A DNA stretch of 64,000 nucleotides, taken from NCBI GenBank assembly GCA_964016885.1, contig OZ024751.1:37076001-37140000 (forward strand). Direction: 5' to 3'. Every line of letters begins with the position of its first letter. Within the stretch, counting starts at the first letter, position 1. Origin of the DNA: Eledone cirrhosa. Lineage: Eukaryota. The notes below the pieces were generated by a model. The model had not been told where the DNA came from. It was given only the letters and a program-made list of their open reading frames with translations, and searched no databases. The translations under genes and the position numbers were made by a program. This document shows positions 15,371 to 60,561 of this stretch, piece by piece.

Positions 15371-15741
15371 CACATTGATAGAATTGGTATACAAATACGT
15401 AAGTATATATTGTTCGAAAAGTCGGTAAATATATGGCCGGTCCGGACCCTTCACCAAGAAGACTGGGTTAATCCCCCCCCCCCCCCCCGCCTGGATATAA
15501 TTATAAGCACTACAGAAAAAGATATTTCGTAGTTTCCTAATTTAAGGCATTAGTATGTGATACGATTACTATTTACAACGGGTGTGTTAGTAGAAGTATG
15601 CAAGGAGATGAATTAACTCTACCATCTTGACTTCAGCGTATATGTCAGTACTGTTAATAGCTTAATACATTAAGGTCCAGCGCCTTCACGACACAAAAGA
15701 ATATGGCTAGTATATGTGTTTTATTATTTTGGTCCGGGGAC

Positions 15742-16035
15742 AAATTCTGTCATGGTTAGCTTTGCTTTCATCCTTAAGGGGTCGATAAAATAAAGTATCA
15801 GTAATGAACTGGTGTCGATTTAATTGACTATCCCCTTCCCTTCAAATTGTTGGCCTTATGCCTAAATCAGAAACCATTATTTTGGTCTGGTGAAAAATCC
15901 CGCCGTGGTTAGCTTTGCCTTTCATCGTTAAGGGGTGGATAAAATAAAGCACCAGTAATGCACTGGGGTCGATTTAATCGACGTTCCTCTCCCCCAAATT
16001 GTTGGCCTTGTGCCTAAATCAGAAACCTTTATTAT
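15742..16035 (+). mobile_element. Two tandem 3' halves of the SINE (long variant)
   Basis: Two CTTTCATC..GGGGTCGATAAAATAAAG..CCCAAATTGTTGGCCTTGTGCCTAAATCAGAAACC units. Confidence 0.8.
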
Positions 16036-18867: not shown

Positions 18868-19005
18868 AATAATAATAATAATAATAATAACAATGATGAT
18901 TTCATTTATTGGACACAAGGGCCGACATGTAGGGGACAATAAAAAGACACGGACAGTGGGGGTTTCAATAAGCTCGAGTAAAAGTGAAAAATGGCAAGAC
19001 GAAAA
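18868..19005 (-). mobile_element. 5'-truncated, diverged 3'-end fragment of the same LINE family
   Basis: Reverse complement AAACCCCCACTGTCC...GTCCCCTACATGTCGGCCCTTGTGTCCAATAAATGAAATCAT+(ATT)n matches the array 3'UTR; sits in a (TAA/TAC)n tract. Confidence 0.85.
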
Positions 19006-19064
19006 TACTACTACTACTAATACTACTGCTACTACTAATAATAATAATGATGATAATAATAATA

Positions 19065-19249
19065 ATTGTTTCTACTTTGGGCACAAGGCCAGCAATTACC
19101 AGTGCATTACTGGTACTTTATTTTATCGACCCCGTAAGGATGAAAGGCAAAGTCAACCTCGGCGGGATTTGAACTCAGATCGTAAAGGGACGTAACTATG
19201 CTGGAAAGCAAGGCGTTCGACCCTCTACCGATACTGCCAATCCACCGCC
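19065..19249 (-). mobile_element. SINE copy, full-length
   Basis: GGCGGTGGATTGGCAGTATCGG...AGAAACAAT+(TAT)n. Confidence 0.88.

Positions 19250-38733: not shown

Positions 38734-38735
<2 letters not shown>
37416..38735 (-). mobile_element. 5'-truncated R4/Dong-type non-LTR retrotransposon (RT thumb, CCHC, restriction-like endonuclease), frameshifted
   Basis: YKYLG, GGRGLISIED, CRICG..ETVPHIVSEC, RHD, LWDFRIQTD, RPDLVVLDK, IVDVACPFD, EKI.RYQDL (PD..D RLE); (AAT)n on the sense strand at both ends. Confidence 0.88.
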
Positions 38736-38821
<86 letters not shown>

Positions 38822-38860: not shown

Positions 38861-39056
38861 AGGGTGGGGAAGTGGCAGTATCGGTAGAGGGTCGGACGCC
38901 ATGCTTTGACGCATAGAGTTACGGCTCTTGCCATTCTGAGTTCAAATCCCGCCTAGGTTGACTTTGCCTTTCATCCTTACGGGTTCAATAAAATAAAGTA
39001 CCAGTAATGCACTGGGTAATTGCTGGCCTTGTGCCTAAAGTAGAAACAATTATTAT
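38861..39056 (+). mobile_element. SINE copy, full-length
   Basis: A and B boxes, family consensus, (ATT)n tail. Confidence 0.88.
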
Positions 39057-39436: not shown

Positions 39437-40225
39437 TAGGAGGAGGAGGAGGGGGAGGAAAAGTATATAATCAGAATTATCATCATTGTTGTCATTACTA
39501 TCAATATTACTATCAATATTATTATTATTATTATTATTATTACTACCTTTCTGATAGTTGTTATTGTTATTGTTGTCTTCGTTGTTGTGGTTTTTATTTT
39601 AAACTTATTTTACTTTAAATTCTAAATTTAAAAAAAAATTCTTTCATTTGTAATTCTTCATCTGGACACAAAGATATCAAAGACTTTTCTTGTCGTTGTC
39701 ATTTTTTATTTATTTCTCTATGTTTTATATATTGTTTACTCAATAGTCCCTGGATCGCTTTCTTCAAACAATTAGCATAAAATTCAAGAAAGTGAAAAAA
39801 GATTTCTCTACGACAGAAAATAAAAATAAAAGAAAAATCAACTTAAAAATCAACATAAAAATAAAAAAAAACAGAATACATGTGTGAGACTTTCATTAAT
39901 TTTATGTCTACTTATTTATTTACTACTACTATTACTACTACTACTATCATTATTATTACTTGTAGTAGTAGTAGTAGTAGTTGTTGTGTTAATGTTATTA
40001 TTATTATTATTATTGACGAAAGTGGATGTACGTTTTTTGAAGCTCCGTGAGTAAGCAATTTTTTGAGGATTAATTGTAGAGAATTGTTTATTTTTTGTAC
40101 CGCTGAAGCATTATAAGACATTAATTTGTATCCTGTGAAGGAATAACTCATAATATTTGGGCCTTTTGGCCCAAATATTTGAACTTTATTTTGAAAAAAA
40201 ATAATAATTTTTTTCTCAAAAAAAC

Positions 40226-42088
40226 ATGGCGGAGCCACGCCCCCTAGAGGCGGGTCTGCTGTCGTGCAACGGCGACTTGAGCGTTGAGAGGAGAGGTGAG
40301 GCGAGGAGCGCCACCAGCACGAATGTGAGCAGCGACAGTGCCAGCACCAACGGGCCGAGCGGCGCGGAAGGTGGTAACAGCGACAACACCAACACCAACA
40401 AGCCGAACAGCGCAGAAGGTGGTAATAGCGAGAGCACCAACAAGGCCAACAGCACAGAAGGTAACCACGACACAGGGGAGAACAACAACAGCAATAGCAG
40501 CAGCAACACCAACAAGAACAACAACAGTGACAACACCAACAAGAACACTTTCGCTGCTGTGGCAGCGGCTAAAAGGAGACCATGCTACAGCATCGACTTA
40601 ACCAACAGAGAGGAAAAGTTGGCCCAGGCCTGGAAAATCATAAATCAAGAGCAGACCTGGGCAAACTTAACTGTCCCGGCAGAAGCCATTGAGGCAGTGG
40701 AAAAAAGAACGGTGCATTTCAGATGCATCTCAGTAGAGACAAAGAGGGCAGCGATAATCGCCCAAGCTGACATAGAAGCCGCACTGAAATACATCAGAGA
40801 GGACACAGACTTCATAGAGAGGGGCAGGCAATACGGCACCGTTTCGGTGCTGTTCAAGTCTGAAGCCCTCGCTGTGAAGCATTCAATGACCCCTTGCAAA
40901 ACCAGCAAGGTCATAATGTACCCCTCCCACATGGGAAAACGAATAGCACGTGTGCGCATTCCCAGGATTCCACCAGGACTTGATATGTGGTGGCTCCTGG
41001 GTTGCGTAATCGTGGAAGGAACGGATACAGTCCCGGTAGAGGCAACGAGAACTGCCAGGGACGACTGGTCCGGGGTTGATCTGGAGATACTGCTCCAAAT
41101 CAGACCCGAAAACGTAAAAACAATCCCGGACCACATCCGCCTCCAAAACGGGAGGGTGTTGCATATAATGACTGAGGGCAAAAGGCCGCATTGTTTCCTT
41201 TGTGGGGAAACGACACACTTGCGAGCCTTCTGCCCTCAACTGCCGAAAAGCGCAAGGGGTCGAAAGATTCCACTGCTGGCGACGCCGGGACAAGGACCAC
41301 CAGCAACACCGTCAACAATGGAACCACCAAAATTGCACACCCAGGGGGGAAACGAGGAAAGCTCTCCCATTCCCCCTCCCCCCCAAAATACACACACGAA
41401 CAAGAACATAAACACTCACTCAGACACAAACACGCTCACAGCCACAGACCCCTCATCCTCCAGCAGTGAAGATGAGGGAAAACCAAAGTCCCCCAAAATA
41501 CAAAAAACAAAACACAAAAAAAAAAGAAATCCACAAAGCACAAACACCCCCACAAAAAAAAATACACACACCACCCACACAAACATTTTCCCCACAGCAT
41601 CACCAACACAACCACCAAAATCCCCCAAACGCAAACAAGCTAAACAGACACGAGAACAAATAGACACACAAACATCAGAAACTACAGACACCCCACCCAC
41701 AACAAACGCAGACACAATAGAAACAACACTAACAAAGCTATCACCACCACAATCACACGAACAAATAAAACCCGAGCAACAAAACATTAAAAACTTCGTG
41801 CTTGCCAGAAGGGCCAACAAGGAATTGATGGCCCATGTAGCACGAAGCACAAACATCGAAAAAGACGGGGAAACATTTGAAGCGAGCACATTTCGCGTAC
41901 CAGATAATTTGCTTCTGATGCGAATGTCGCTCGCTTCATACAAAGAAATTCGAAAGAGCTTTCCTCGGGATGTGGGAACCCCGAACGTAAAACCCACGTC
42001 AAGACTATTAAAGGGGTTCCCAAAAGAAACCCCACAAACCATGGAGGTCGAACCACCCGACCTTCACAAGACCCCGGAAGGTAAGTAA
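40226..42088 (+). CDS. LINE ORF1, gag-like nucleic-acid-binding protein with CCHC zinc knuckle (copy 1)
   Basis: 620 aa; CX2CX4HX4C knuckle CFLCGETTHLRAFC; N/S/T-rich N-terminus; basic low-complexity C-terminal part; lies upstream of APE-RT ORF. Confidence 0.9.
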   Translation: MAEPRPLEAGLLSCNGDLSVERRGEARSATSTNVSSDSASTNGPSGAEGGNSDNTNTNKPNSAEGGNSESTNKANSTEGNHDTGENNNSNSSSNTNKNNNSDNTNKNTFAAVAAAKRRPCYSIDLTNREEKLAQAWKIINQEQTWANLTVPAEAIEAVEKRTVHFRCISVETKRAAIIAQADIEAALKYIREDTDFIERGRQYGTVSVLFKSEALAVKHSMTPCKTSKVIMYPSHMGKRIARVRIPRIPPGLDMWWLLGCVIVEGTDTVPVEATRTARDDWSGVDLEILLQIRPENVKTIPDHIRLQNGRVLHIMTEGKRPHCFLCGETTHLRAFCPQLPKSARGRKIPLLATPGQGPPATPSTMEPPKLHTQGGNEESSPIPPPPQNTHTNKNINTHSDTNTLTATDPSSSSSEDEGKPKSPKIQKTKHKKKRNPQSTNTPTKKNTHTTHTNIFPTASPTQPPKSPKRKQAKQTREQIDTQTSETTDTPPTTNADTIETTLTKLSPPQSHEQIKPEQQNIKNFVLARRANKELMAHVARSTNIEKDGETFEASTFRVPDNLLLMRMSLASYKEIRKSFPRDVGTPNVKPTSRLLKGFPKETPQTMEVEPPDLHKTPEGK

Positions 42089-42117
42089 ACCTTTCCTCTC
42101 CCATTCATCCTGCCAGC

Positions 42118-45100
42118 ATGGCCATAAGAGTAGGAAGTTTAAATGTTCGTGGCCTGGGGTCGCCCTGGAAGCAAGGTCACTTGCTCAACGACCTCAGGTC
42201 ACTAGGAATGGATGTAATTGCCATCAGCGAGACCAGAATTTCCGACACACGCGCACTGGCGCCGATTTTCGACGATTATCAGATCTTTGCATCTGTTAGT
42301 CGGCCGGGAATGGGAGGTGGAGTGGCTGTGCTGTTTAGGAAATGTCTGGATCTCGAGGTAAGGTCAATCTTCCGGGATCCTGACGGAAAGTTGGTGGTCC
42401 TGGACGTGAGCAATAGCGAAGGTGGTGCCTTTAGACTGGTGGCCGTCTACGCCCCTACTGGGGCCGGTCGGCCGGACTTCTTTAGGCGCCTGGAAAACTT
42501 TCTGCTTACGTCTCGCCCTTTACTGTTAATAGGGGATTGGAATGGCATCTTAGAAGCACGCTGGGATTGTGTGGGAGTATCTGATAGGAGCGGGGGGTGC
42601 AAAAGCCTCAAGTACCTGATCAGCCAGTTTCAACTGTCTGACAGGTACCGACTAGATTTCCCTAATGCGCCAGTATGGACCTGGACCAATCGCATAGGGT
42701 CATCTAGATCGTACATAGATAGGATTTTCATTAGGAAAAGAGATAGAAATAGTGTAGGATGTCCACATTTTAAAACGGTTGCCTATTCAGATCACAAGCT
42801 TGTGATCTGTATGGTCGACCTAGATAAGACACGTAGGTTAGGACCTAGCTACTGGAAGCTAAACATGTCGTTTCCGGCACGTAAAGCTTACAGGGACCGG
42901 GTCAACAACTTAGTTAAGCAAAAGTTGACAGGGGGGGGTTGTCAACAACAGGTGGTGGGGGGCACTCAAAAGAGAGATTAGAGCAACCTCGATAGGATTT
43001 AGCAAAGAAGTAGCAATAGAGAAAAATAGAAAAGAGGAGGGGCTGATAGCTAAGTTAGACGAGGCTATTTGTAGTGGCATTGCAACAGACGTGCTAGCGG
43101 CGAGAATGGCACTAGACCATTTCTTCAATGCGAAACACGAAGGTTGCATTGTCAGAGCTAAGGCGCGTGCTCTGAGGAACGAGGGAACCAAAGCTGCCCG
43201 ATGGGCTCGCTTTGCAGAGACGCAGCGTGGAAATAAAACCACAATTCGGTCTTTGACGGATCGAGATGGACACGAACTGAGCGATTCCAAGCAGATGTGT
43301 GAGGCCTTTCGCCAGCACTTTGCTCGATTGTTCGGGAGGATGGGTGAGTCGGAGACGGCGGCGGACTTCAGTCCCTACCTCGACGGCTTGCCACGCCTCT
43401 CGACGGCCGACGCTGAGCGCTGCGAAGAGCCGATAACATCAGCCGAAATTCAGGACGCCCTTGTCGGCTGCTCGAGTCGCAAGTCACCCGGTTTGGATGG
43501 TCTGCCCTACGAGCTTTACGTAAATATGCCAGACTTGTTCTCCGATCTCCTCGAAGCGCTCTACTGCAACTGGCAGCAGAACGGGAGCATTCCCAGTTCT
43601 GTGAGCCGTGGCGTAGTGACGCTGATAAGGAAAGACGAGAACAAGAGGGACACACTAGATAATTTCAGGCCCATAACCCTGCTCAACACAGAGTTTAAGA
43701 TTTTGGCCAAGGTGTTAGCGAAAAGGTTGGCGCTTGTCGTCAAAGATTTGGTTGGGGAGGCGCAAACTTGCGCAATCCCGACCAGGTCCATACACGACAA
43801 CCTCCACCTCATGCGATACATCATAGAGAGGGTTGGGTGCAAACCTGGCTTCGGTGGGGCTCTGATCAATTTAGATCAATCGAAAGCATTCGATAGGGTC
43901 GACCATCGGTACTTGGAGGCTGTCCTCGAGGCGGCTGGCTTCGGCCCCGTCTTCAGAAGCTGGATCGCTGCAATGTACAGCGGCATCCGCTCGGTGGTCA
44001 AAGTTAATGGCCACCTCTCGGAACCGTTTCAGATCTCTCGATCGGTCCGTCAAGGGTGCCCTCTCTCCTCACTTCTGTACGTATTGACTCTTGAGCCTCT
44101 ACTGCGGAAGCTGGAGTTGTTGCAGGGCATCCCGCTCGAACCGGGACGTAGAAAGGCTGCGTCCGCTTATGCGGACGACATCACCGTGATGGTGTCGGAC
44201 ACCTGGGAAATCGAGGTGATCCGCACCCATTTGGAGGAATATGAAAGGTTGACGGGAGCAAAACTTAACCCGGAAAAGTCGGTGGGCTTGCAGCTCGGCA
44301 CCTGGAGAGGCAAGTCCATGCCGTCCAACAGCGTCGTTGGGCGCTGGACAGACGGACCGGTAAAGTTGCTCGGGGTTTGGTTCGGACCAGACCTCCAGGT
44401 GGATAAGAATTGGGACGAGGTGACGAGCAGGATAGCCAACCTCACCCAGAAATGGGCTGAGAGAAAGCTATCACTGAAAGGGCGGGCGGAGGTGGCGAAC
44501 GCGTACATCGCGTCCGTCATCTACTACCGCCTGACCGTCGTGCCTTGCCCCCGTCCACGCCTCGCCAATTTGGAACGGCTCCTTTTCAAATTTTTGTGGA
44601 GGGGACGGGTCCCGTTGGTGAGGCGGTCCATCTGCTGCCAGCACCCTCTTCGTGGAGGGCTGGGCATGCCGTGGCTAATGATGCGCAGACATGCGCTGAG
44701 GCTGCGACATCTCCAGATATTTTGCCTAAACGGTGAACAGGTGTGGTCGCCGTTTGTTAGACGGGCCTTTCCGCAGCTCATCTCTTTGACTGAGCTGCAG
44801 TCCTGGGTCAAGAAGAGACCGAGACTGGGCGACTGGCATCTGGAATGTTGCCAGGCGCTCACTGCACTCTGCAAGGTGGGCAATGCGGTCAGTGGAACTT
44901 CCACTCAAGATTTCTATAGAGGATTAGTGGAGGGCAAGTGCGATGACGTACTAGGAGAGGCTCTGGGCGTCAACGAAGTAGAACTGACCAGTATGTTCCG
45001 GAGGACTTTCGAGCCGGGGACGATGGATAACTTCCAGAAATCCCTCGCTTGGCAGTGCTACCGGGGGGCGCTGCCGGTTCGGGATAAACTCTACAGGCAC

Positions 45101-45538
45101 GGAAGTGCTGTCAGACGAACCTGCCCGAGATGCGCGCAGAGCGACGAAACCGTTCTGCACGCACTCGTCCAGTGTCCGTGCATTGCTGACTTGTGGGGTT
45201 ATGTCGAACAGCTATTGTCGCGTGTAGAACGGATCCGGCTATCGTCCGAGTCCATAGTGAAGATTGACCCGCCGCCTTCTTTTGGTCAGGAAGGGCAGGC
45301 AATTTTCCTCTGCCTGGTGGCAGTAGCGAAAGAGGTTGCATGGTGGACCAGGTTGAAAGGACTGAAGACAGACACTTTTCTCTTCGGCCAATCCCTCATC
45401 AACTTCTTCAAGTTTCACTTGGAAAGGAAGGTGAGGGTGGAGAGAGAAGTGCTGCCCCCCAGTACATTTACTGAAAGGTGGGTGAATGTGGCGAGAATGG
45501 CCCGCGTGAGTGGGCCTACTCTGATCATGCGCCTGTAG
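42118..45538 (+). pseudogene. LINE ORF2 (APE endonuclease, reverse transcriptase, CCHC) split by a +1 G frameshift (copy 1)
   Basis: G8 run at 42931-42938 versus G7 in copies 2 and 3 splits ORF2 into 287-aa and 815-aa pieces. Confidence 0.85.
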
Positions 45539-46021
45539 GCTGGTGAATTCGAGAAGGAGAGGGGTGCCCTTCCCGGGTGCCCTAGGAGCGTCGGGTGGCT
45601 CAGGACTGGTGGGGTGCTTGAGTCAACCCTGGGTGGTGATCCCTCTTATTGGGGAACTTTCATTGTTGTATTTTTATTGTTATTTTGTTTTTTTGGTTAT
45701 TTATACTTACTCGATCTCTATGTAAACCCCCACTGTCCCTGTCTATTGTGTTGTCCCCTATATGTCGGCCCTTGTGGCCAATAAATGAAATCATTATTAT
45801 TATTATTATTGACGAAAGTGGATGTACGTTTTTTGAAGCTCCGTGAGTAAGCAATTTTTTGAGGATTAATTGTAGAGAATTGTTTATTTTTTGTACCGCT
45901 GAAGCATTATAAGACATTAATTTGTATCCTGTGAAGGAATAACTCATAATATTTGGGCCTTTTGGCCCAAATATTTGAACTTTATTTTGAAAAAAAATAA
46001 TAATTTTTTTCTCAAAAAAAC

Positions 46022-47884
46022 ATGGCGGAGCCACGCCCCCTAGAGGCGGGTCTGCTGTCGTGCAACGGCGACTTGAGCGTTGAGAGGAGAGGTGAGGCGA
46101 GGAGCGCCACCAGCACGAATGTGAGCAGCGACAGTGCCAGCACCAACGGGCCGAGCGGCGCGGAAGGTGGTAACAGCGACAACACCAACACCAACAAGCC
46201 GAACAGCGCAGAAGGTGGTAATAGCGAGAGCACCAACAAGGCCAACAGCACAGAAGGTAACCACGACACAGGGGAGAACAACAACAGCAATAGCAGCAGC
46301 AACACCAACAAGAACAACAACAGTGACAACACCAACAAGAACACTTTCGCTGCTGTGGCAGCGGCTAAAAGGAGACCATGCTACAGCATCGACTTAACCA
46401 ACAGAGAGGAAAAGTTGGCCCAGGCCTGGAAAATCATAAATCAAGAGCAGACCTGGGCAAACTTAACTGTCCCGGCAGAAGCCATTGAGGCAGTGGAAAA
46501 AAGAACGGTGCATTTCAGATGCATCTCAGTAGAGACAAAGAGGGCAGCGATAATCGCCCAAGCTGACATAGAAGCCGCACTGAAATACATCAGAGAGGAC
46601 ACAGACTTCATAGAGAGGGGCAGGCAATACGGCACCGTTTCGGTGCTGTTCAAGTCTGAAGCCCTCGCTGTGAAGCATTCAATGACCCCTTGCAAAACCA
46701 GCAAGGTCATAATGTACCCCTCCCACATGGGAAAACGAATAGCACGTGTGCGCATTCCCAGGATTCCACCAGGACTTGATATGTGGTGGCTCCTGGGTTG
46801 CGTAATCGTGGAAGGAACGGATACAGTCCCGGTAGAGGCAACGAGAACTGCCAGGGACGACTGGTCCGGGGTTGATCTGGAGATACTGCTCCAAATCAGA
46901 CCCGAAAACGTAAAAACAATCCCGGACCACATCCGCCTCCAAAACGGGAGGGTGTTGCATATAATGACTGAGGGCAAAAGGCCGCATTGTTTCCTTTGTG
47001 GGGAAACGACACACTTGCGAGCCTTCTGCCCTCAACTGCCGAAAAGCGCAAGGGGTCGAAAGATTCCACTGCTGGCGACGCCGGGACAAGGACCACCAGC
47101 AACACCGTCAACAATGGAACCACCAAAATTGCACACCCAGGGGGGAAACGAGGAAAGCTCTCCCATTCCCCCTCCCCCCCAAAATACACACACGAACAAG
47201 AACATAAACACTCACTCAGACACAAACACGCTCACAGCCACAGACCCCTCATCCTCCAGCAGTGAAGATGAGGGAAAACCAAAGTCCCCCAAAATACAAA
47301 AAACAAAACACAAAAAAAAAAGAAATCCACAAAGCACAAACACCCCCACAAAAAAAAATACACACACCACCCACACAAACATTTTCCCCACAGCATCACC
47401 AACACAACCACCACAATCCCCCAAACGCAAACAAGCTAAACAGACACAAGAACAAATAGACACACAAACATCAGAAACTACAGACACCCCACCCACAACA
47501 AACGCAGACACAATAGAAACAACACTAACAAAGCTATCACCACCACAATCACACGAACAAATAAAACCCGAGCAACAAAACATTAAAAACTTCGTGCTTG
47601 CCAGAAGGGCCAACAAGGAATTGATGGCCCATGTAGCACGAAGCACAAACATCGAAAAAGACGGGGAAACATTTGAAGCGAGCACATTTCGCGTACCAGA
47701 TAATTTGCTTCTGATGCGAATGTCGCTCGCTTCATACAAAGAAATTCGAAAGAGCTTTCCTCGGGATGTGGGAACCCCGAACGTAAAACCCACGTCAAGA
47801 CTATTAAAGGGGTTCCCAAAAGAAACCCCACAAACCATGGAGGTCGAACCACCCGACCTTCACAAGACCCCGGAAGGTAAGTAA
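46022..47884 (+). CDS. LINE ORF1 (copy 2)
   Basis: 620 aa, zinc knuckle; differs from copy 1 at about 2 residues. Confidence 0.9.
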   Translation: MAEPRPLEAGLLSCNGDLSVERRGEARSATSTNVSSDSASTNGPSGAEGGNSDNTNTNKPNSAEGGNSESTNKANSTEGNHDTGENNNSNSSSNTNKNNNSDNTNKNTFAAVAAAKRRPCYSIDLTNREEKLAQAWKIINQEQTWANLTVPAEAIEAVEKRTVHFRCISVETKRAAIIAQADIEAALKYIREDTDFIERGRQYGTVSVLFKSEALAVKHSMTPCKTSKVIMYPSHMGKRIARVRIPRIPPGLDMWWLLGCVIVEGTDTVPVEATRTARDDWSGVDLEILLQIRPENVKTIPDHIRLQNGRVLHIMTEGKRPHCFLCGETTHLRAFCPQLPKSARGRKIPLLATPGQGPPATPSTMEPPKLHTQGGNEESSPIPPPPQNTHTNKNINTHSDTNTLTATDPSSSSSEDEGKPKSPKIQKTKHKKKRNPQSTNTPTKKNTHTTHTNIFPTASPTQPPQSPKRKQAKQTQEQIDTQTSETTDTPPTTNADTIETTLTKLSPPQSHEQIKPEQQNIKNFVLARRANKELMAHVARSTNIEKDGETFEASTFRVPDNLLLMRMSLASYKEIRKSFPRDVGTPNVKPTSRLLKGFPKETPQTMEVEPPDLHKTPEGK

Positions 47885-47913
47885 ACCTTTCCTCTCCCAT
47901 TCATCCTGCCAGC

Positions 47914-50900
47914 ATGGCCATAAGAGTAGGAAGTTTAAATGTTCGTGGCCTGGGGTCGCCCTGGAAGCAAGGTCACTTGCTCAACGACCTCAGGTCACTA
48001 GGAATGGATGTAATTGCCATCAGCGAGACCAGAATTTCCGACACACGCGCACTGGCGCCGATTTTCGACGATTATCAGATCTTTGCATCTGTTAGTCGGC
48101 CGGGAATGGGAGGTGGAGTGGCTGTGCTGTTTAGGAAATGTCTGGATCTCGAGGTAAGGTCAATCTTCCGGGATCCTGACGGAAAGTTGGTGGTCCTGGA
48201 CGTGAGCAATAGCGAAGGTGGTGCCTTTAGACTGGTGGCCGTCTACGCCCCTACTGGGGCCGGTCGGCCGGACTTCTTTAGGCGCCTGGAAAACTTTCTG
48301 CTTACGTCTCGCCCTTTACTGTTAATAGGGGATTGGAATGGCATCTTAGAAGCACGCTGGGATTGTGTGGGAGTATCTGATAGGAGCGGGGGGTGCAAAA
48401 GCCTCAAGTACCTGATCAGCCAGTTTCAACTGTCTGACAGGTACCGACTAGATTTCCCTAATGCGCCAGTATGGACCTGGACCAATCGCATAGGGTCATC
48501 TAGATCGTACATAGATAGGATTTTCATTAGGAAAAGAGATAGAAATAGTGTAGGATGTCCACATTTTAAAACGGTTGCCTATTCAGATCACAAGCTTGTG
48601 ATCTGTATGGTCGACCTAGATAAGACACGTAGGTTAGGACCTAGCTACTGGAAGCTAAACATGTCGTTTCCGGCACGTAAAGCTTACAGGGACCGGGTCA
48701 ACAACTTAGTTAAGCAAAAGTTGACAGGGGGGGTTGTCAACAACAGGTGGTGGGGGGCACTCAAAAGAGAGATTAGAGCAACCTCGATAGGATTTAGCAA
48801 AGAAGTAGCAATAGAGAAAAATAGAAAGGAGGAGGGGCTGATAGCTAAGTTAGACGAGGCTATTTGTAGTGGCATTGCAACAGACGTGCTAGCGGCGAGA
48901 ATGGCACTAGACCATTTCTTCAATGCGAAACACGAAGGTTGCATTGTCAGAGCTAAGGCGCGTGCTCTGAGGAACGAGGGAACCAAAGCTGCCCGATGGG
49001 CTCGCTTTGCAGAGACGCAGCGTGGAAATAAAACCACAATTCGGTCTTTGACGGATCGAGATGGACACGAACTGAGCGATTCCAAGCAGATGTGTGAGGC
49101 CTTTCGCCAGCACTTTGCTCGATTGTTCGGGAGGATGGGTGAGTCGGAGACGGCGGCGGACTTCAGTCCCTACCTCGACGGCTTGCCACGCCTCTCGACG
49201 GCCGACGCTGAGCGCTGCGAAGAGCCGATAACATCAGCCGAAATTCAGGACGCCCTTGTCGGCTGCTCGAGTCGCAAGTCACCCGGTTTGGATGGTCTGC
49301 CCTACGAGCTTTACGTAAATATGCCAGACTTGTTCTCCGATCTCCTCGAAGCGCTCTACTGCAACTGGCAGCAGAACGGGAGCATTCCCAGTTCTGTGAG
49401 CCGTGGCGTAGTGACGCTGATAAGGAAAGACGAGAACAAGAGGGACACACTAGATAATTTCAGGCCCATAACCCTGCTCAACACAGAGTTTAAGATTTTG
49501 GCCAAGGTGTTAGCGAAAAGGTTGGCGCTTGTCGTCAAAGATTTGGTTGGGGAGGCGCAAACTTGCGCAATCCCGACCAGGTCCATACACGACAACCTCC
49601 ACCTCATGCGATACATCATAGAGAGGGTTGGGTGCAAACCTGGCTTCGGTGGGGCTCTGATCAATTTAGATCAATCGAAAGCATTCGATAGGGTCGACCA
49701 TCGGTACTTGGAGGCTGTCCTCGAGGCGGCTGGCTTCGGCCCCGTCTTCAGAAGCTGGATCGCTGCAATGTACAGCGGCATCCGCTCGGTGGTCAAAGTT
49801 AATGGCCACCTCTCGGAACCGTTTCAGATCTCTCGATCGGTCCGTCAAGGGTGCCCTCTCTCCTCACTTCTGTACGTATTGACTCTTGAGCCTCTACTGC
49901 GGAAGCTGGAGTTGTTGCAGGGCATCCCGCTCGAACCGGGACGTAGAAAGGCTGCGTCCGCTTATGCGGACGACATCACCGTGATGGTGTCGGACACCTG
50001 GGAAATCGAGGTGATCCGCACCCATTTGGAGGAATATGAAAGGTTGACGGGAGCAAAACTTAACCCGGAAAAGTCGGTGGGCTTGCAGCTCGGCACCTGG
50101 AGAGGCAAGTCCATGCCGTCCAACAGCGTCGTTGGGCGCTGGACAGACGGACCGGTAAAGTTGCTCGGGGTTTGGTTCGGACCAGACCTCCAGGTGGATA
50201 AGAATTGGGACGAGGTGACGAGCAGGATAGCCAACCTCACCCAGAAATGGGCTGAGAGAAAGCTATCACTGAAAGGGCGGGCGGAGGTGGCGAACGCGTA
50301 CATCGCGTCCGTCATCTACTACCGCCTGACCGTCGTGCCTTGCCCCCGTCCACGCCTCGCCAATTTGGAACGGCTCCTTTTCAAATTTTTGTGGAGGGGA
50401 CGGGTCCCGTTGGTGAGGCGGTCCATCTGCTGCCAGCACCCTCTTCGTGGAGGGCTGGGCATGCCGTGGCTAATGATGCGCAGACATGCGCTGAGGCTGC
50501 GACATCTCCAGATATTTTGCCTAAACGGTGAACAGGTGTGGTCGCCGTTTGTTAGACGGGCCTTTCCGCAGCTCATCTCTTTGACTGAGCTGCAGTCCTG
50601 GGTCAAGAAGAGACCGAGACTGGGCGACTGGCATCTGGAATGTTGCCAGGCGCTCACTGCACTCTGCAAGGTGGGCAATGCGGTCAGTGGAACTTCCACT
50701 CAAGATTTCTATAGAGGATTAGTGGAGGGCAAGTGCGATGACGTACTAGGAGAGGCTCTGGGCGTCAACGAAGTAGAACTGACCAGTATGTTCCGGAGGA
50801 CTTTCGAGCCGGGGACGATGGATAACTTCCAGAAATCCCTCGCTTGGCAGTGCTACCGGGGGGCGCTGCCGGTTCGGGATAAACTCTACAGGCACGGAAG

Positions 50901-51333
50901 TGCTGTCAGACGAACCTGCCCGAGATGCGCGCAGAGCGACGAAACCGTTCTGCACGCACTCGTCCAGTGTCCGTGCATTGCTGACTTGTGGGGTTATGTC
51001 GAACAGCTATTGTCGCGTGTAGAACGGATCCGGCTATCGTCCGAGTCCATAGTGAAGATTGACCCGCCGCCTTCTTTTGGTCAGGAAGGGCAGGCAATTT
51101 TCCTCTGCCTGGTGGCAGTAGCGAAAGAGGTTGCATGGTGGACCAGGTTGAAAGGACTGAAGACAGACACTTTTCTCTTCGGCCAATCCCTCATCAACTT
51201 CTTCAAGTTTCACTTGGAAAGGAAGGTGAGGGTGGAGAGAGAAGTGCTGCCCCCCAGTACATTTACTGAAAGGTGGGTGAATGTGGCGAGAATGGCCCGC
51301 GTGAGTGGGCCTACTCTGATCATGCGCCTGTAG
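47914..51333 (+). CDS. LINE ORF2: APE endonuclease + reverse transcriptase + C-terminal CCHC (copy 2)
   Basis: APE motifs LNVRGL, ISET, VYAP, GDWN, IDRIF, SDH; RT motifs SPGLDG, FRPITLLN, LDQSKAFDRV, RQGCPLS, YADD, GGLG; CPRC...HALVQC. Confidence 0.97.
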   Translation: MAIRVGSLNVRGLGSPWKQGHLLNDLRSLGMDVIAISETRISDTRALAPIFDDYQIFASVSRPGMGGGVAVLFRKCLDLEVRSIFRDPDGKLVVLDVSNSEGGAFRLVAVYAPTGAGRPDFFRRLENFLLTSRPLLLIGDWNGILEARWDCVGVSDRSGGCKSLKYLISQFQLSDRYRLDFPNAPVWTWTNRIGSSRSYIDRIFIRKRDRNSVGCPHFKTVAYSDHKLVICMVDLDKTRRLGPSYWKLNMSFPARKAYRDRVNNLVKQKLTGGVVNNRWWGALKREIRATSIGFSKEVAIEKNRKEEGLIAKLDEAICSGIATDVLAARMALDHFFNAKHEGCIVRAKARALRNEGTKAARWARFAETQRGNKTTIRSLTDRDGHELSDSKQMCEAFRQHFARLFGRMGESETAADFSPYLDGLPRLSTADAERCEEPITSAEIQDALVGCSSRKSPGLDGLPYELYVNMPDLFSDLLEALYCNWQQNGSIPSSVSRGVVTLIRKDENKRDTLDNFRPITLLNTEFKILAKVLAKRLALVVKDLVGEAQTCAIPTRSIHDNLHLMRYIIERVGCKPGFGGALINLDQSKAFDRVDHRYLEAVLEAAGFGPVFRSWIAAMYSGIRSVVKVNGHLSEPFQISRSVRQGCPLSSLLYVLTLEPLLRKLELLQGIPLEPGRRKAASAYADDITVMVSDTWEIEVIRTHLEEYERLTGAKLNPEKSVGLQLGTWRGKSMPSNSVVGRWTDGPVKLLGVWFGPDLQVDKNWDEVTSRIANLTQKWAERKLSLKGRAEVANAYIASVIYYRLTVVPCPRPRLANLERLLFKFLWRGRVPLVRRSICCQHPLRGGLGMPWLMMRRHALRLRHLQIFCLNGEQVWSPFVRRAFPQLISLTELQSWVKKRPRLGDWHLECCQALTALCKVGNAVSGTSTQDFYRGLVEGKCDDVLGEALGVNEVELTSMFRRTFEPGTMDNFQKSLAWQCYRGALPVRDKLYRHGSAVRRTCPRCAQSDETVLHALVQCPCIADLWGYVEQLLSRVERIRLSSESIVKIDPPPSFGQEGQAIFLCLVAVAKEVAWWTRLKGLKTDTFLFGQSLINFFKFHLERKVRVEREVLPPSTFTERWVNVARMARVSGPTLIMRL

Positions 51334-51816
51334 GCTGGTGAATTCGAGAAGGAGAGGGGTGCCCTTCCCGGGTGCCCTAGGAGCGTCGGGTGGCTCAGGA
51401 CTGGTGGGGTGCTTGAGTCAACCCTGGGTGGTGATCCCTCTTATTGGGGAACTTTCATTGTTGTATTTTTATTGTTATTTTGTTTTTTTGGTTATTTATA
51501 CTTACTCGATCTCTATGTAAACCCCCACTGTCCCTGTCTATTGTGTTGTCCCCTATATGTCGGCCCTTGTGGCCAATAAATGAAATCATTATTATTATTA
51601 TTATTGACGAAAGTGGATGTACGTTTTTTGAAGCTCCGTGAGTAAGCAATTTTTTGAGGATTAATTGTAGAGAATTGTTTATTTTTTGTACCGCTGAAGC
51701 ATTATAAGACATTAATTTGTATCCTGTGAAGGAATAACTCATAATATTTGGGCCTTTTGGCCCAAATATTTGAACTTTATTTTGAAAAAAAATAATAATT
51801 TTTTTCTCAAAAAAAC

Positions 51817-53679
51817 ATGGCGGAGCCACGCCCCCTAGAGGCGGGTCTGCTGTCGTGCAACGGCGACTTGAGCGTTGAGAGGAGAGGTGAGGCGAGGAGC
51901 GCCACCAGCACGAATGTGAGCAGCGACAGTGCCAGCACCAACGGGCCGAGCGGCGCGGAAGGTGGTAACAGCGACAACACCAACACCAACAAGCCGAACA
52001 GCGCAGAAGGTGGTAATAGCGAGAGCACCAACAAGGCCAACAGCACAGAAGGTAACCACGACACAGGGGAGAACAACAACAGCAATAGCAGCAGCAACAC
52101 CAACAAGAACAACAACAGTGACAACACCAACAAGAACACTTTCGCTGCTGTGGCAGCGGCTAAAAGGAGACCATGCTACAGCATCGACTTAACCAACAGA
52201 GAGGAAAAGTTGGCCCAGGCCTGGAAAATCATAAATCAAGAGCAGACCTGGGCAAACTTAACTGTCCCGGCAGAAGCCATTGAGGCAGTGGAAAAAAGAA
52301 CGGTGCATTTCAGATGCATCTCAGTAGAGACAAAGAGGGCAGCGATAATCGCCCAAGCTGACATAGAAGCCGCACTGAAATACATCAGAGAGGACACAGA
52401 CTTCATAGAGAGGGGCAGGCAATACGGCACCGTTTCGGTGCTGTTCAAGTCTGAAGCCCTCGCTGTGAAGCATTCAATGACCCCTTGCAAAACCAGCAAG
52501 GTCATAATGTACCCCTCCCACATGGGAAAACGAATAGCACGTGTGCGCATTCCCAGGATTCCACCAGGACTTGATATGTGGTGGCTCCTGGGTTGCGTAA
52601 TCGTGGAAGGAACGGATACAGTCCCGGTAGAGGCAACGAGAACTGCCAGGGACGACTGGTCCGGGGTTGATCTGGAGATACTGCTCCAAATCAGACCCGA
52701 AAACGTAAAAACAATCCCGGACCACATCCGCCTCCAAAACGGGAGGGTGTTGCATATAATGACTGAGGGCAAAAGGCCGCATTGTTTCCTTTGTGGGGAA
52801 ACGACACACTTGCGAGCCTTCTGCCCTCAACTGCCGAAAAGCGCAAGGGGTCGAAAGATTCCACTGCTGGCGACGCCGGGACAAGGACCACCAGCAACAC
52901 CGTCAACAATGGAACCACCAAAATTGCACACCCAGGGGGGAAACGAGGAAAGCTCTCCCATTCCCCCTCCCCCCCAAAATACACACACGAACAAGAACAT
53001 AAACACTCACTCAGACACAAACACGCTCACAGCCACAGACCCCTCATCCTCCAGCAGTGAAGATGAGGGAAAACCAAAGTCCCCCAAAATACAAAAAACA
53101 AAACACAAAAAAAAAAGAAATCCACAAAGCACAAACACCCCCACAAAAAAAAATACACACACCACCCACACAAACATTTTCCCCACAGCATCACCAACAC
53201 AACCACCAAAATCCCCCAAACGCAAACAAGCTAAACAGACACAAGAACAAATAGACACACAAACATCAGAAACTACAGACACCCCACCCACAACAAACGC
53301 AGACACAATAGAAACAACACTAACAAAGCTATCACCACCACAATCACACGAACAAATAAAACCCGAGCAACAAAACATTAAAAACTTCGTGCTTGCCAGA
53401 AGGGCCAACAAGGAATTGATGGCCCATGTAGCACGAAGCACAAACATCGAAAAAGACGGGGAAACATTTGAAGCGAGCACATTTCGCGTACCAGATAATT
53501 TGCTTCTGATGCGAATGTCGCTCGCTTCATACAAAGAAATTCGAAAGAGCTTTCCTCGGGATGTGGGAACCCCGAACGTAAAACCCACGTCAAGACTATT
53601 AAAGGGGTTCCCAAAAGAAACCCCACAAACCATGGAGGTCGAACCACCCGACCTTCACAAGACCCCGGAAGGTAAGTAA
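51817..53679 (+). CDS. LINE ORF1 (copy 3)
   Basis: 620 aa, zinc knuckle CFLCGETTHLRAFC. Confidence 0.9.
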   Translation: MAEPRPLEAGLLSCNGDLSVERRGEARSATSTNVSSDSASTNGPSGAEGGNSDNTNTNKPNSAEGGNSESTNKANSTEGNHDTGENNNSNSSSNTNKNNNSDNTNKNTFAAVAAAKRRPCYSIDLTNREEKLAQAWKIINQEQTWANLTVPAEAIEAVEKRTVHFRCISVETKRAAIIAQADIEAALKYIREDTDFIERGRQYGTVSVLFKSEALAVKHSMTPCKTSKVIMYPSHMGKRIARVRIPRIPPGLDMWWLLGCVIVEGTDTVPVEATRTARDDWSGVDLEILLQIRPENVKTIPDHIRLQNGRVLHIMTEGKRPHCFLCGETTHLRAFCPQLPKSARGRKIPLLATPGQGPPATPSTMEPPKLHTQGGNEESSPIPPPPQNTHTNKNINTHSDTNTLTATDPSSSSSEDEGKPKSPKIQKTKHKKKRNPQSTNTPTKKNTHTTHTNIFPTASPTQPPKSPKRKQAKQTQEQIDTQTSETTDTPPTTNADTIETTLTKLSPPQSHEQIKPEQQNIKNFVLARRANKELMAHVARSTNIEKDGETFEASTFRVPDNLLLMRMSLASYKEIRKSFPRDVGTPNVKPTSRLLKGFPKETPQTMEVEPPDLHKTPEGK

Positions 53680-53708
53680 ACCTTTCCTCTCCCATTCATC
53701 CTGCCAGC

Positions 53709-56700
53709 ATGGCCATAAGAGTAGGAAGTTTAAATGTTCGTGGCCTGGGGTCGCCCTGGAAGCAAGGTCACTTGCTCAACGACCTCAGGTCACTAGGAAT
53801 GGATGTAATTGCCATCAGCGAGACCAGAATTTCCGACACACGCGCACTGGCGCCGATTTTCGACGATTATCAGATCTTTGCATCTGTTAGTCGGCCGGGA
53901 ATGGGAGGTGGAGTGGCTGTGCTGTTTAGGAAATGTCTGGATCTCGAGGTAAGGTCAATCTTCCGGGATCCTGACGGAAAGTTGGTGGTCCTGGACGTGA
54001 GCAATAGCGAAGGTGGTGCCTTTAGACTGGTGGCCGTCTACGCCCCTACTGGGGCCGGTCGGCCGGACTTCTTTAGGCGCCTGGAAAACTTTCTGCTTAC
54101 GTCTCGCCCTTTACTGTTAATAGGGGATTGGAATGGCATCTTAGAAGCACGCTGGGATTGTGTGGGAGTATCTGATAGGAGCGGGGGGTGCAAAAGCCTC
54201 AAGTACCTGATCAGCCAGTTTCAACTGTCTGACAGGTACCGACTAGATTTCCCTAATGCGCCAGTATGGACCTGGACCAATCGCATAGGGTCATCTAGAT
54301 CGTACATAGATAGGATTTTCATTAGGAAAAGAGATAGAAATAGTGTAGGATGTCCACATTTTAAAACGGTTGCCTATTCAGATCACAAGCTTGTGATCTG
54401 TATGGTCGACCTAGATAAGACACGTAGGTTAGGACCTAGCTACTGGAAGCTAAACATGTCGTTTCCGGCACGTAAAGCTTACAGGGACCGGGTCAACAAC
54501 TTAGTTAAGCAAAAGTTGACAGGGGGGGTTGTCAACAACAGGTGGTGGGGGGCACTCAAAAGAGAGATTAGAGCAACCTCGATAGGATTTAGCAAAGAAG
54601 TAGCAATAGAGAAAAATAGAAAGGAGGAGGGGCTGATAGCTAAGTTAGACGAGGCTATTTGTAGTGGCATTGCAACAGACGTGCTAGCGGCGAGAATGGC
54701 ACTAGACCATTTCTTCAATGCGAAACACGAAGGTTGCATTGTCAGAGCTAAGGCGCGTGCTCTGAGGAACGAGGGAACCAAAGCTGCCCGATGGGCTCGC
54801 TTTGCAGAGACGCAGCGTGGAAATAAAACCACAATTCGGTCTTTGATGGATCGAGATGGACACGAACTGAGCGATTCCAAGCAGATGTGTGAGGCCTTTC
54901 GCCAGCACTTTGCTCGATTGTTCGGGAGGATGGGTGAGTCGGAGACGGCGGCGGACTTCAGTCCCTACCTCGACGGCTTGCCACGCCTCTCGACGGCCGA
55001 CGCTGAGCGCTGCGAAGAGCCGATAACATCAGCCGAAATTCAGGACGCCCTTGTCGGCTGCTCGAGTCGCAAGTCACCCGGTTTGGATGGTCTGCCCTAC
55101 GAGCTTTACGTAAATATGCCAGACTTGTTCTCCGATCTCCTCGAAGCGCTCTACTGCAACTGGCAGCAGAACGGGAGCATTCCCAGTTCTGTGAGCCGTG
55201 GCGTAGTGACGCTGATAAGGAAAGACGAGAACAAGAGGGACACACTAGATAATTTCAGGCCCATAACCCTGCTCAACACAGAGTTTAAGATTTTGGCCAA
55301 GGTGTTAGCGAAAAGGTTGGCGCTTGTCGTCAAAGATTTGGTTGGGGAGGCGCAAACTTGCGCAATCCCGACCAGGTCCATACACGACAACCTCCACCTC
55401 ATGCGATACATCATAGAGAGGGTTGGGTGCAAACCTGGCTTCGGTGGGGCTCTGATCAATTTAGATCAATCGAAAGCATTCGATAGGGTCGACCATCGGT
55501 ACTTGGAGGCTGTCCTCGAGGCGGCTGGCTTCGGCCCCGTCTTCAGAAGCTGGATCGCTGCAATGTACAGCGGCATCCGCTCGGTGGTCAAAGTTAATGG
55601 CCACCTCTCGGAACCGTTTCAGATCTCTCGATCGGTCCGTCAAGGGTGCCCTCTCTCCTCACTTCTGTACGTATTGACTCTTGAGCCTCTACTGCGGAAG
55701 CTGGAGTTGTTGCAGGGCATCCCGCTCGAACCGGGACGTAGAAAGGCTGCGTCCGCTTATGCGGACGACATCACCGTGATGGTGTCGGACACCTCGGAAA
55801 TCGAGGTGATCCGCACCCATTTGGAGGAATATGAAAGGTTGACGGGAGCAAAACTTAACCCGGAAAAGTCGGTGGGCTTGCAGCTCGGCACCTGGAGAGG
55901 CAAGTCCATGCCGTCCAACAGCGTCGTTGGGCGCTGGACAGACGGACCGGTAAAGTTGCTCGGGGTTTGGTTCGGACCAGACCTCCAGGTGGATAAGAAT
56001 TGGGACGAGGTGACGAGCAGGATAGCCAACCTCACCCAGAAATGGGCTGAGAGAAAGCTATCACTGAAAGGGCGGGCGGAGGTGGCGAACGCGTACATCG
56101 CGTCCGTCATCTACTACCGCCTGACCGTCGTGCCTTGCCCCCGTCCACGCCTCGCCAATTTGGAACGGCTCCTTTTCAAATTTTTGTGGAGGGGACGGGT
56201 CCCGTTGGTGAGGCGGTCCATCTGCTGCCAGCACCCTCTTCGTGGAGGGCTGGGCATGCCGTGGCTAATGATGCGCAGACATGCGCTGAGGCTGCGACAT
56301 CTCCAGATATTTTGCCTAAACGGTGAACAGGTGTGGTCGCCGTTTGTTAGACGGGCCTTTCCGCAGCTCATCTCTTTGACTGAGCTGCAGTCCTGGGTCA
56401 AGAAGAGACCGAGACTGGGCGACTGGCATCTGGAATGTTGCCAGGCGCTCACTGCACTCTGCAAGGTGGGCAATGCGGTCAGTGGAACTTCCACTCAAGA
56501 TTTCTATAGAGGATTAGTGGAGGGCAAGTGCGATGACGTACTAGGAGAGGCTCTGGGCGTCAACGAAGTAGAACTGACCAGTATGTTCCGGAGGACTTTC
56601 GAGCCGGGGACGATGGATAACTTCCAGAAATCCCTCGCTTGGCAGTGCTACCGGGGGGCGCTGCCGGTTCGGGATAAACTCTACAGGCACGGAAGTGCTG

Positions 56701-57128
56701 TCAGACGAACCTGCCCGAGATGCGCGCAGAGCGACGAAACCGTTCTGCACGCACTCGTCCAGTGTCCGTGCATTGCTGACTTGTGGGGTTATGTCGAACA
56801 GCTATTGTCGCGTGTAGAACGGATCCGGCTATCGTCCGAGTCCATAGTGAAGATTGACCCGCCGCCTTCTTTTGGTCAGGAAGGGCAGGCAATTTTCCTC
56901 TGCCTGGTGGCAGTAGCGAAAGAGGTTGCATGGTGGACCAGGTTGAAAGGACTGAAGACAGACACTTTTCTCTTCGGCCAATCCCTCATCAACTTCTTCA
57001 AGTTTCACTTGGAAAGGAAGGTGAGGGTGGAGAGAGAAGTGCTGCCCCCCAGTACATTTACTGAAAGGTGGGTGAATGTGGCGAGAATGGCCCGCGTGAG
57101 TGGGCCTACTCTGATCATGCGCCTGTAG
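53709..57128 (+). CDS. LINE ORF2 APE-RT-CCHC (copy 3)
   Basis: 1139 aa intact; all catalytic motifs as in copy 2. Confidence 0.97.
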   Translation: MAIRVGSLNVRGLGSPWKQGHLLNDLRSLGMDVIAISETRISDTRALAPIFDDYQIFASVSRPGMGGGVAVLFRKCLDLEVRSIFRDPDGKLVVLDVSNSEGGAFRLVAVYAPTGAGRPDFFRRLENFLLTSRPLLLIGDWNGILEARWDCVGVSDRSGGCKSLKYLISQFQLSDRYRLDFPNAPVWTWTNRIGSSRSYIDRIFIRKRDRNSVGCPHFKTVAYSDHKLVICMVDLDKTRRLGPSYWKLNMSFPARKAYRDRVNNLVKQKLTGGVVNNRWWGALKREIRATSIGFSKEVAIEKNRKEEGLIAKLDEAICSGIATDVLAARMALDHFFNAKHEGCIVRAKARALRNEGTKAARWARFAETQRGNKTTIRSLMDRDGHELSDSKQMCEAFRQHFARLFGRMGESETAADFSPYLDGLPRLSTADAERCEEPITSAEIQDALVGCSSRKSPGLDGLPYELYVNMPDLFSDLLEALYCNWQQNGSIPSSVSRGVVTLIRKDENKRDTLDNFRPITLLNTEFKILAKVLAKRLALVVKDLVGEAQTCAIPTRSIHDNLHLMRYIIERVGCKPGFGGALINLDQSKAFDRVDHRYLEAVLEAAGFGPVFRSWIAAMYSGIRSVVKVNGHLSEPFQISRSVRQGCPLSSLLYVLTLEPLLRKLELLQGIPLEPGRRKAASAYADDITVMVSDTSEIEVIRTHLEEYERLTGAKLNPEKSVGLQLGTWRGKSMPSNSVVGRWTDGPVKLLGVWFGPDLQVDKNWDEVTSRIANLTQKWAERKLSLKGRAEVANAYIASVIYYRLTVVPCPRPRLANLERLLFKFLWRGRVPLVRRSICCQHPLRGGLGMPWLMMRRHALRLRHLQIFCLNGEQVWSPFVRRAFPQLISLTELQSWVKKRPRLGDWHLECCQALTALCKVGNAVSGTSTQDFYRGLVEGKCDDVLGEALGVNEVELTSMFRRTFEPGTMDNFQKSLAWQCYRGALPVRDKLYRHGSAVRRTCPRCAQSDETVLHALVQCPCIADLWGYVEQLLSRVERIRLSSESIVKIDPPPSFGQEGQAIFLCLVAVAKEVAWWTRLKGLKTDTFLFGQSLINFFKFHLERKVRVEREVLPPSTFTERWVNVARMARVSGPTLIMRL

Positions 57129-57518
57129 GCTGGTGAATTCGAGAAGGAGAGGGGTGCCCTTCCCGGGTGCCCTAGGAGCGTCGGGTGACTCAGGACTGGT
57201 GGGGTGCTTGAGTCAACCCTGGGTGGTGATCCCTCTTATTGGGGAACTTTCATTGTTGTATTTTTATTGTTATTTTGTTTTTGTTTTTTTGTTATTTATA
57301 CTTACTCGATCTCTATGTAAACCCCCACTGTCCCTGTCTATTGTGTTGTCCCCTATATGTCGGCCCTTGTGGCCAATAAATGAAATCATTATTATTATTA
57401 TTATTTTTTTTTTGGAGAATAGAAAATTGAGTAAGAATGTCATTATAGATGGAATACGAAAAAAAAAGCTTCAAGGAGAGAGAGAGATAGAGAGAAAGAG
57501 AGAAAGAGAGAAAGAGAG

Positions 57519-60220: not shown

Positions 60221-60370
60221 CTTATATAATATATAATCTGTTTAACTTGATTTAACGTCTAGACGCCCTATTACTAACATAACCATAAACATAATATTCG
60301 ATGCTTTATTTAGTAACTAGAGTTCAATTTCTGCCTCATTATTACAACACAAGACTGTGTTATATAATAA

Positions 60371-60561
60371 GGGCGATGGATTGGCAGTATCGGTAGAGGG
60401 TCGGACGCCATGCTTTCCAGCATAGTTACGTCCCTTTAAGATCTGAGTTCAAATCCCGCCGAGGTTGACTTTGCCTTTCATCCTTACGGGGTCGATAAAA
60501 TAAAGTACCAGTAATGCACTGGGTAATTGCTGGCCTTGTGTCTAAATTAGAAACAATTATT
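60371..60561 (+). mobile_element. SINE copy, full-length
   Basis: Family consensus; TA(C/T)AACACAAGACT repeated on both sides (TSD-like). Confidence 0.88.

Follow-up and report, generated by a model that had tools for sequence, protein, structure and literature searches.

A Tx1-like LINE group as the probable partner of an abundant tRNA-headed SINE of Eledone cirrhosa

Introduction

The closest described systems are the UnaSINE1/UnaL2 pair and its zebrafish counterpart with ZfL2. As set out in passages of PMC4176376 and PMC3747384, a SINE with a tRNA head and a LINE of the L2 type carry a common short 3′ stem-loop, in which the loop is conserved and the stem is variable. Pairs within the L1 clade are represented by maize ZmSINE2 and ZmSINE3 with LINE1-1_ZM and by Chlamydomonas SINEX-3_CR with L1-1_CR (PMC3747384). 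These L1-type LINEs possess a conserved 3′ hairpin with compensatory stem changes, which the SINE shares. Sharing of this kind is very rare among L1-type LINEs: the relevant passages of this 2013 review count three SINEs, from plants and a green alga, that share 3′ ends with them, and do not settle if strict 3′ recognition is the ancestral state of the L1-type group.

The crocodilian SINEU elements were assigned to the LINE Tx1-Mar via a common target, and form tandem copies one duplication apart; the duplication of SINEU-3 is 16 nt (passages of PMC4494074). The same passages describe the Tx1 families Kibi, Koshi and those of crocodilians as AP-endonuclease LINEs specific for the microsatellites (TC)n, (TTC)n and (TTCC)n/(TTTC)n, respectively. 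The Ceph-SINEs (SepiaSINE) and the octopus elements OK, OR1 and OR2 are described as tRNA-derived SINEs.

The window analysed here is a stretch of 64,000 nucleotides from the 3.0-Gb assembly of Eledone cirrhosa (contig OZ024751.1, positions 37,076,001 to 37,140,000). An earlier note on this DNA proposed that the abundant tRNA-derived SINE carries the 3′ end of an L1/Tx1-type LINE found in the window, and that this LINE or a close relative drives it.

The LINE copies of the window

Three head-to-tail copies of a 5.8-kb LINE, named family A, occupy positions 40015-57387 (+) (Table 1). The copies are 99.8-99.9% identical and have nothing but (ATT)6 between them, a layout that would follow from insertion of each new copy into the duplication made by an earlier one. 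Trains of one family or of mixed families also occur at loci L068, L160, L162-L164, L061 and L063. Within the 5′ UTR lies a very stable AT-rich hairpin at 45948-45975 (+) (z -5.9), also present near 40152-40179 and 51743-51770. The old LINE end on the minus strand (Table 1) sits among four SINE copies, at about 18490-19240.

A Pfam search with the ORF1 product of copy 2 gave no match at E≤1. The solved structure nearest to its ORF2 product is human L1 ORF2p (E 4e-57), followed by R2 proteins (E 5e-24), with no third type matched; the protein is thus closer to L1 than to the other non-LTR proteins recovered by this structure search. Family A has the broad characters of L1/Tx1 LINEs, with two ORFs and an ORF2 comprising AP endonuclease, reverse transcriptase and a C-terminal zinc finger. 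It also has the target-sequence specificity of the Tx1 clade: at least (ATT)6 flanks both sides of all 21 full-length copies with both flanks visible, from 23 loci that were chosen as top matches and are young for that reason. No Tx1-named match was present among the 120 homologues listed or in the atlas clusters; the designation Tx1-like is accordingly used, on the grounds of structure and target specificity.

Table 1. Positions of the LINE and SINE features within the window
Feature	Position	Strand	Remarks
Adjacent long-form SINE, 5′-truncated	15721..15875	+	loop variant CTTAT, at 15852
SINE quoted in the earlier note, long form, 5′-truncated	15885..16027	+	hairpin motif 16004-16014
Old 5′-truncated 3′ end of family A lineage	18898..18983	-	88% identical
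Full-length short-form SINE	38862..39048	+	tRNA-like head, A- and B-box-like motifs by eye
LINE copy 1	40015..45792	+	5,778 bp, L1/Tx1-type, family A
ORF2 of LINE copy 1	42085-42981 and 42929-45538	+	frameshifted into two pieces
LINE 3′ hairpin	45767..45779	+	4-bp stem and CTTGT loop; repeated at 51562-51574, 57362-57374
AATAAA and last 7 nt of LINE	45780..45792	+	AATAAA at 45780-45785
(ATT)6 target/duplication between LINE copies 1 and 2	45793..45810	+	same 18 nt at 39997-40014, 51588-51605, 57388-57405
LINE copy 2	45811..51587	+	both ORFs open
ORF1 of LINE copy 2	46022..47884	+	620 aa; CCHC-type knuckle by eye
ORF2 of LINE copy 2	47914..51333	+	1,139 aa; AP-type endonuclease, reverse transcriptase, zf-RVT
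LINE copy 3	51606..57387	+	both ORFs open
Full-length short-form SINE	60370..60555	+	ARAGORN tRNA-like fold in head, lowered threshold

The 3′ terminus of the LINE

The LINE end quoted in the earlier note is present at 45754-45798, the element itself ending at 45792. Its hairpin always lies immediately 5′ of AATAAA, and the spacer from stem to target is 13 nt in family A and 12 nt in the sister families. The stem pairs with a probability of 0.95-1.0 in predicted folds of the whole 3′ UTR; neither of the two elements' hairpins is more stable than its shuffles (z 0.33 and 0.85). Across 14 LINE family ends, 79% of the stem cells pair. The check for covariation proposed earlier gave, for these LINE ends, eight cells changed on both sides, a number reached by 0/500 shuffles and by none of the slid controls. 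These changes amount to about 2-3 independent events on few tree branches of related families, and the outer stem pair is broken in six of the 14 ends.

The 132 C-terminal matches provided 46 distinct Tx1-like ends. Poly(A) was found at 0/46 of the LINE ends despite the conserved AATAAA. Copying therefore begins at a set position and, unlike that of mammalian L1, is apparently not primed from poly(A). A fixed start point could be explained by hairpin binding or by annealing of AUU to the target. The motif of hairpin plus AATAAA was seen in 0/70 metagenome relatives, which are mostly distant and many of which lack their 3′ end.

The SINE and its hairpin

The SINE is about 190-220 nt in length, interspersed and high in copy number, with target duplications, as is typical of tRNA-derived SINEs. 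At a lowered threshold, ARAGORN called a tRNA-like head in one of two copies, and Rfam returned no match to the SINE at the gathering score. The exact 27-base tail pattern of the short form occurs 135,115 times genome-wide (reversed control 0). Within the window, a search allowing one mismatch finds 17 occurrences of the 11-base hairpin motif of the SINE, where 0.35 are expected; 14 of these are SINE copies and three lie at the same offset within the LINE units. Likeness to MetaSINE was sought by eye in the supplement sequences of PMC4824008 and this identity was dropped. The same comparison found no likeness of the SINE to the central domains of Ceph-SINE, CORE-SINE or MetaSINE in the supplement sequences used, namely SepiaSINE (PMC5786205 supplement) and bivalve Meta and CORE elements (PMC4824008 supplement); among the cephalopod SINEs introduced above, SepiaSINE was the one compared by sequence.

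The SINE end reported in the earlier note is found at 15990-16027. The short subfamily was correctly described as deleted upstream of a retained hairpin, about 29 nt being missing (offsets 47 versus 18-19). Long-form copies (for example 15966-15980 +) contain a second small hairpin, with a 6-bp stem and a 3-nt loop, in the stretch deleted from the short form. Other SINE-like families have the central core in common and differ in their 3′ sequences, which suggests tail swapping (window about 15200 (-); loci L096, L100, L132, L146, L152; L077, L133, L155). Tandem arrays of SINE tail fragments are present on the same contig as the window at 17564450-17565800, and also at locus L210.

A CTTGT stem-loop had been assigned to both ends. 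This is firm for the LINE, with 4 bp, and applies in part to the SINE, where the stem has 3 bp and the predicted folds are weak. The fourth pair attributed to the SINE stem holds for part of the copies: the two positions are T-A in 47/110 and T-T in 58/110, the quoted copy itself being T-T. The pairing probability of the 3-bp stem is about 0.5 in the last 60 nt. When the whole element is folded, competition from longer helices brings the median down to 0.03-0.04. Essentially no compensatory stem change was seen across the 110 copies. When these are anchored on the hairpin motif, the loop columns vary by 2.7%, the stem by 4.5% and the flanks by 6-8%.

Similarity of the two tails

A SINE-tail profile of 30 columns, with the ATT repeat excluded, was built from 110 of 133 SINE cores. 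The remaining 23 cores had no ungapped tail, some being from other SINE families, and 14 overlapping loci were also left out. SINE copies reach a median of 47.9 on their own profile. The shuffle control proposed earlier separated the LINE end from chance, with family A at 12.1 and its shuffles at -28.9 ± 8.0 (0/300 reach it). None of 2.15 million shuffled genomic positions scored at least 10. Family A attains its score with one gap; a sister family reaches 10.8 ungapped. For nine of 10 Tx1-like ends, at most 3/300 shuffles attain the profile score; the other (L067) failed, at 152/300, and its z in a gapped test was borderline, at 1.7-2.3.

In this gapped test, which used 20 of 35 long tails, family A has a z of 5.5 against 1,098 genomic 42-mers preceding ATTAT sites, after removal of 33 of 1,131 that contained the SINE hairpin. 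The four null 42-mers still above family A are, by eye, degenerate SINE tails. The median identity of the family A end to the 35 long-form tails is about 65% (53-71%); bivalve SINE/LINE pairs are given as 72-95% in the passages of PMC11481361 concerned. Two alignment registers are available, one ungapped on the loop, in which one C-G pair has become G-C, and one in which a single stem pair is deleted. As the short, dominant subfamily is without the upstream pyrimidine stretch, about 30 bases are in common there. The similarity is located exactly at both 3′ ends, with equal spacing. The SINE tail is similar, above chance, to the 3′ end of the whole Tx1-like group, of which the exact end motif occurs 20,768 times genome-wide (reversed control 0).

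No LINE carrying the exact hairpin of the SINE was found in the genome searches and sampled sequence. All four matches of a first exact-hairpin search were SINEs. A second search returned 151 matches, and the 30 examined comprised 26 with a SINE core and four that are, by eye, degenerate or tandem SINE pieces. In 1.36 Mb of sampled sequence, 244/244 profile matches scoring at least 14 were SINEs or, by eye, SINE remnants. In a blind sample of 360 kb, the LINE ends among the profile matches were all Tx1-like.

Other LINE clades

LINEs were sampled by family searches and blind 10-kb stretches, covering part of the LINE clades of the genome. Seven non-Tx1 families had their ends scored: two CR1-type, one Dong and four RTE-type. 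The labels CR1, RTE and Dong/R4 are presumed from Pfam domains together with characteristic motifs. A better match from another clade had been named as grounds against the pairing; no clade tested surpasses the Tx1-like end, those of the CR1, Dong/R4 and four RTE types being unmatched. The profile score was reached by 203 and 153 of 300 shuffles for the CR1-type ends, 197 for Dong and 21 for RTE-b. The nearest look-alike by eye is RTE-a, for which 15/300 shuffles reached the score in one copy and 148/300 in another. In the gapped test, CR1, Dong, RTE-a and RTE-b have z values of -0.1 to 0.9; RTE-c and RTE-d score -2.3 and -15.8, the 99th percentile of the null being 2.4. A search with PF09004 found no match anywhere and was uninformative.

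The Dong/R4-type family was rejected as a partner for its different end and (AAT)n polarity. It inserts in opposite polarity in the ATT/AAT microsatellite, where Tx1-like copies are frequently its tail-to-tail neighbours (window about 37416-38736 (-); loci L016, L034, L036, L046, L052, L066; 45,360 first-look candidates). A young CR1-type family (L081-L096) has a 945-aa ORF2, a GTGC/GCAC hairpin, a true (ATT)n tail and many near-identical copies. It was also rejected, its (ATT)n end being accompanied by a different hairpin and by long duplications in 0/8 copies. The four RTE families end in TGAA, CTGAGT, GAT and TAGA repeats, none of which matches the SINE tail. In SINEs mobilised by RTE, the duplication starts with T behind a T-stretch, according to PMC6007223; the duplications of the SINE start with A in 37/41 copies, and no T-stretch was seen about 10 nt upstream in the 41. 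A second young reverse transcriptase family, in which this domain is short (477-bp matches) and the open reading frames are of about 1,066 aa, is possibly an LTR element.

Target site and duplications

The (ATT)n following both elements had been regarded as a shared tail. It is instead the insertion target and its duplication, and such an end is not peculiar to family A, as the CR1-type family ends likewise. Duplications of 10 nt or longer flank 37/64 of the full-length SINEs, with a median of 14 nt (permuted pairs have a mean of 5.0 and a maximum of 11). The first of the full-length copies in Table 1 is flanked by an 18-nt imperfect duplication beginning ATTATT.

The comparison of insertion sites suggested earlier supports the pairing. 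In the 41 of 78 SINE copies with a duplication, C or T occupies position -1 in 36/41 and each letter of ATTAT is present in 37-39/41. SINE duplications thus start at Y|ATTAT, and the (ATT)n of family A reads T|ATTAT at this point; the common signature is independent support for the pairing. Family A demands long (ATT)n much more strictly; of the SINE duplications, 1/37 is pure ATT. Among old truncated copies of the ATT-targeting LINE branch, 6/17 possess a duplication that reaches 10 nt, and some old copies have just ATTATT at the junction, like the SINEs. Copies of the TATC-targeting branch have similar duplications (12-21 nt in 7/14). In RTE-b the duplications are mostly short and behind another repeat, with 4/16 reaching 10 nt and two of these within microsatellites.

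LINE branches and their age

The ORF2 tree separates an ATT-targeting branch (families A, B and E/F) from a TATC-targeting branch (C and D), with support of 92/81 and 93/91. The target of the SINE is that of the ATT branch. The best fits to the SINE tail are about equal and are given by family A with its old subfamilies and by C and D of the TATC branch (mostly 14-22); families B and E/F of the ATT branch mostly fit worse (0-16). As no LINE with the exact hairpin was found and the fits of the families are nearly equal, the donor was probably an ancestor of the families of today and not family A. The sister branch targets (TATC)n/ATAT and has kept the same loop, which amounts to a target switch in one lineage (L240-L253, L065, L072, L125).

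Family A copies are mostly more than 99% identical. The SINE copies have a median identity of 90.7% to a central natural copy, with four of 78 at 97% or above, and most of the SINE spread would therefore predate family A. Older ATT-branch copies are abundant. Family A being younger than most SINE copies, the bulk of the expansion was likely driven by its older relatives that target ATT.

Discussion

The similarity of the ends and the common ATTAT site make it likely that the Tx1-like group supplies the enzyme that spreads the SINE. It is quite probable that the ATT-targeting branch is the partner. Given this partnership, recognition of the hairpin is a probable step. Taken jointly, mobilisation of the SINE by the ORF2p of the ATT branch through the shared CTTGT hairpin is favoured on balance. 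The proposal that the LINE of the window or a close relative is the driver is upheld for the group by tail and target. The family in the window is not singled out by these data, since sister families score as well (19-22), identity is about 65% and the SINEs are mostly older.

An ancestor of the present families would have supplied the SINE with its end through a template switch. The SINE would then have lost AATAAA, the loop, 3-bp stem and GAAA(C/T) end being retained at the same spacing. ORF2p is proposed to nick the bottom strand at ATAAT/R and then to bind the hairpin. Reverse transcription would begin at a fixed point 12-13 nt behind the hairpin, with no poly(A) copied. The expansion would be mostly the work of older subfamilies of the ATT branch; family A, itself young, may serve only the few young SINEs.

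A different role for the hairpin deserves consideration, in which the same LINE group is the partner and the hairpin of the SINE is a relic. Template choice would then be loose, with the AUUAU end annealing to the nicked ATTAT. This is rather unlikely, and it draws on the low pairing of the SINE stem in whole-element folds and on junctions that all lie at ATTAT, which annealing alone would explain. It also has a precedent in the crocodilian SINEU, assigned to Tx1-Mar by target; passages of PMC4494074 report no LINE with the 3′ end of SINEU-1. Against a relic, the short subfamily lost its 29 or so nucleotides up to the flank of the hairpin, yet kept hairpin and spacer; loop and stem are the least variable columns among the motif-anchored copies; and the LINE stem covaries. 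The conserved, partly covarying hairpin and the junctions without poly(A) would favour stringent recognition, and the weak predicted hairpin of the SINE would count against it. The balance is about even for the wider proposal that the Tx1-like lineage has stringent, hairpin-guided and poly(A)-independent recognition, with CTTGT kept by the ATT and TATC branches and one of the dominant SINEs of the genome driven by the former.

Alternatively, the true donor and driver may be a LINE outside the sample (for example L2, Nimb/I or Hero, or an additional family of CR1 or RTE type), low in copy number or extinct. The modest identity and the missing exact-hairpin LINE would fit such a donor, as would the ratio of seven non-Tx1 ends scored to the 47 recently active LINE families of a related annotation (passages of PMC13282606). 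The profile matches in the 1.36 Mb, all of them SINEs or remnants, the Tx1-like nature of the LINE ends in the blind sample, SINE duplications that depart from the RTE pattern given in PMC6007223 and CR1-type copies without long duplications together render it improbable. Chance or convergence of short AT-rich ends beside an ATT repeat is largely refuted and has very little probability. The match is short, the genome is ATT-rich and neither hairpin surpasses folding shuffles; against this, the repeat was excluded from the score, the shuffles and shuffled positions fell short, and the match occupies precisely the two 3′ termini, at equal spacing. The ATT-targeting Tx1-like branch is thus retained as the preferred partner.

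The SINE and LINE form a credible pair that would work like the stringent pairs and differs by the clade of the partner, the microsatellite target and the missing poly(A). Compared with the UnaL2 and ZfL2 pairs, as described in the passages cited above, the partner is L1/Tx1-type instead of L2, identity is lower, the terminal repeat is a target duplication and not an RNA tail, and the pairing is known from sequence. The contrast with a relaxed mammalian L1 that was drawn earlier is incomplete, since it omits the maize and Chlamydomonas L1-clade pairs with shared ends (passages of PMC3747384). Those have plant and algal hosts, the algal pair being poly(A)-ended, whereas the present host is an animal, the target is a microsatellite and the junctions have no poly(A). 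The SINEU elements, in the passages available, have snRNA heads and poly(A) tails; here the head is of tRNA type and the 3′ end is common with the LINE. The targets found here, (ATT)n for one branch and (TATC)n for its sister, also differ from those of Kibi, Koshi and the crocodilian families in the same source.

In the open literature searched, no cephalopod SINE is given a Tx1- or L1-type partner, and no tRNA-derived SINE with a Tx1-type tail is described; Repbase Reports and Dfam may differ. The question of ancestral stringency becomes testable in animals through a Tx1-like element that is young and intact, possesses a hairpin of 13 nt of which the stem varies naturally, and has a SINE to match. 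The pairing also gives a SINE of over 135,000 copies a likely driver. The passages of PMC13282606 concerned put SINEs at 11.6% of the O. vulgaris genome and name no partner; the pairing described here bears on the expansion of SINEs in octopus-type cephalopods.
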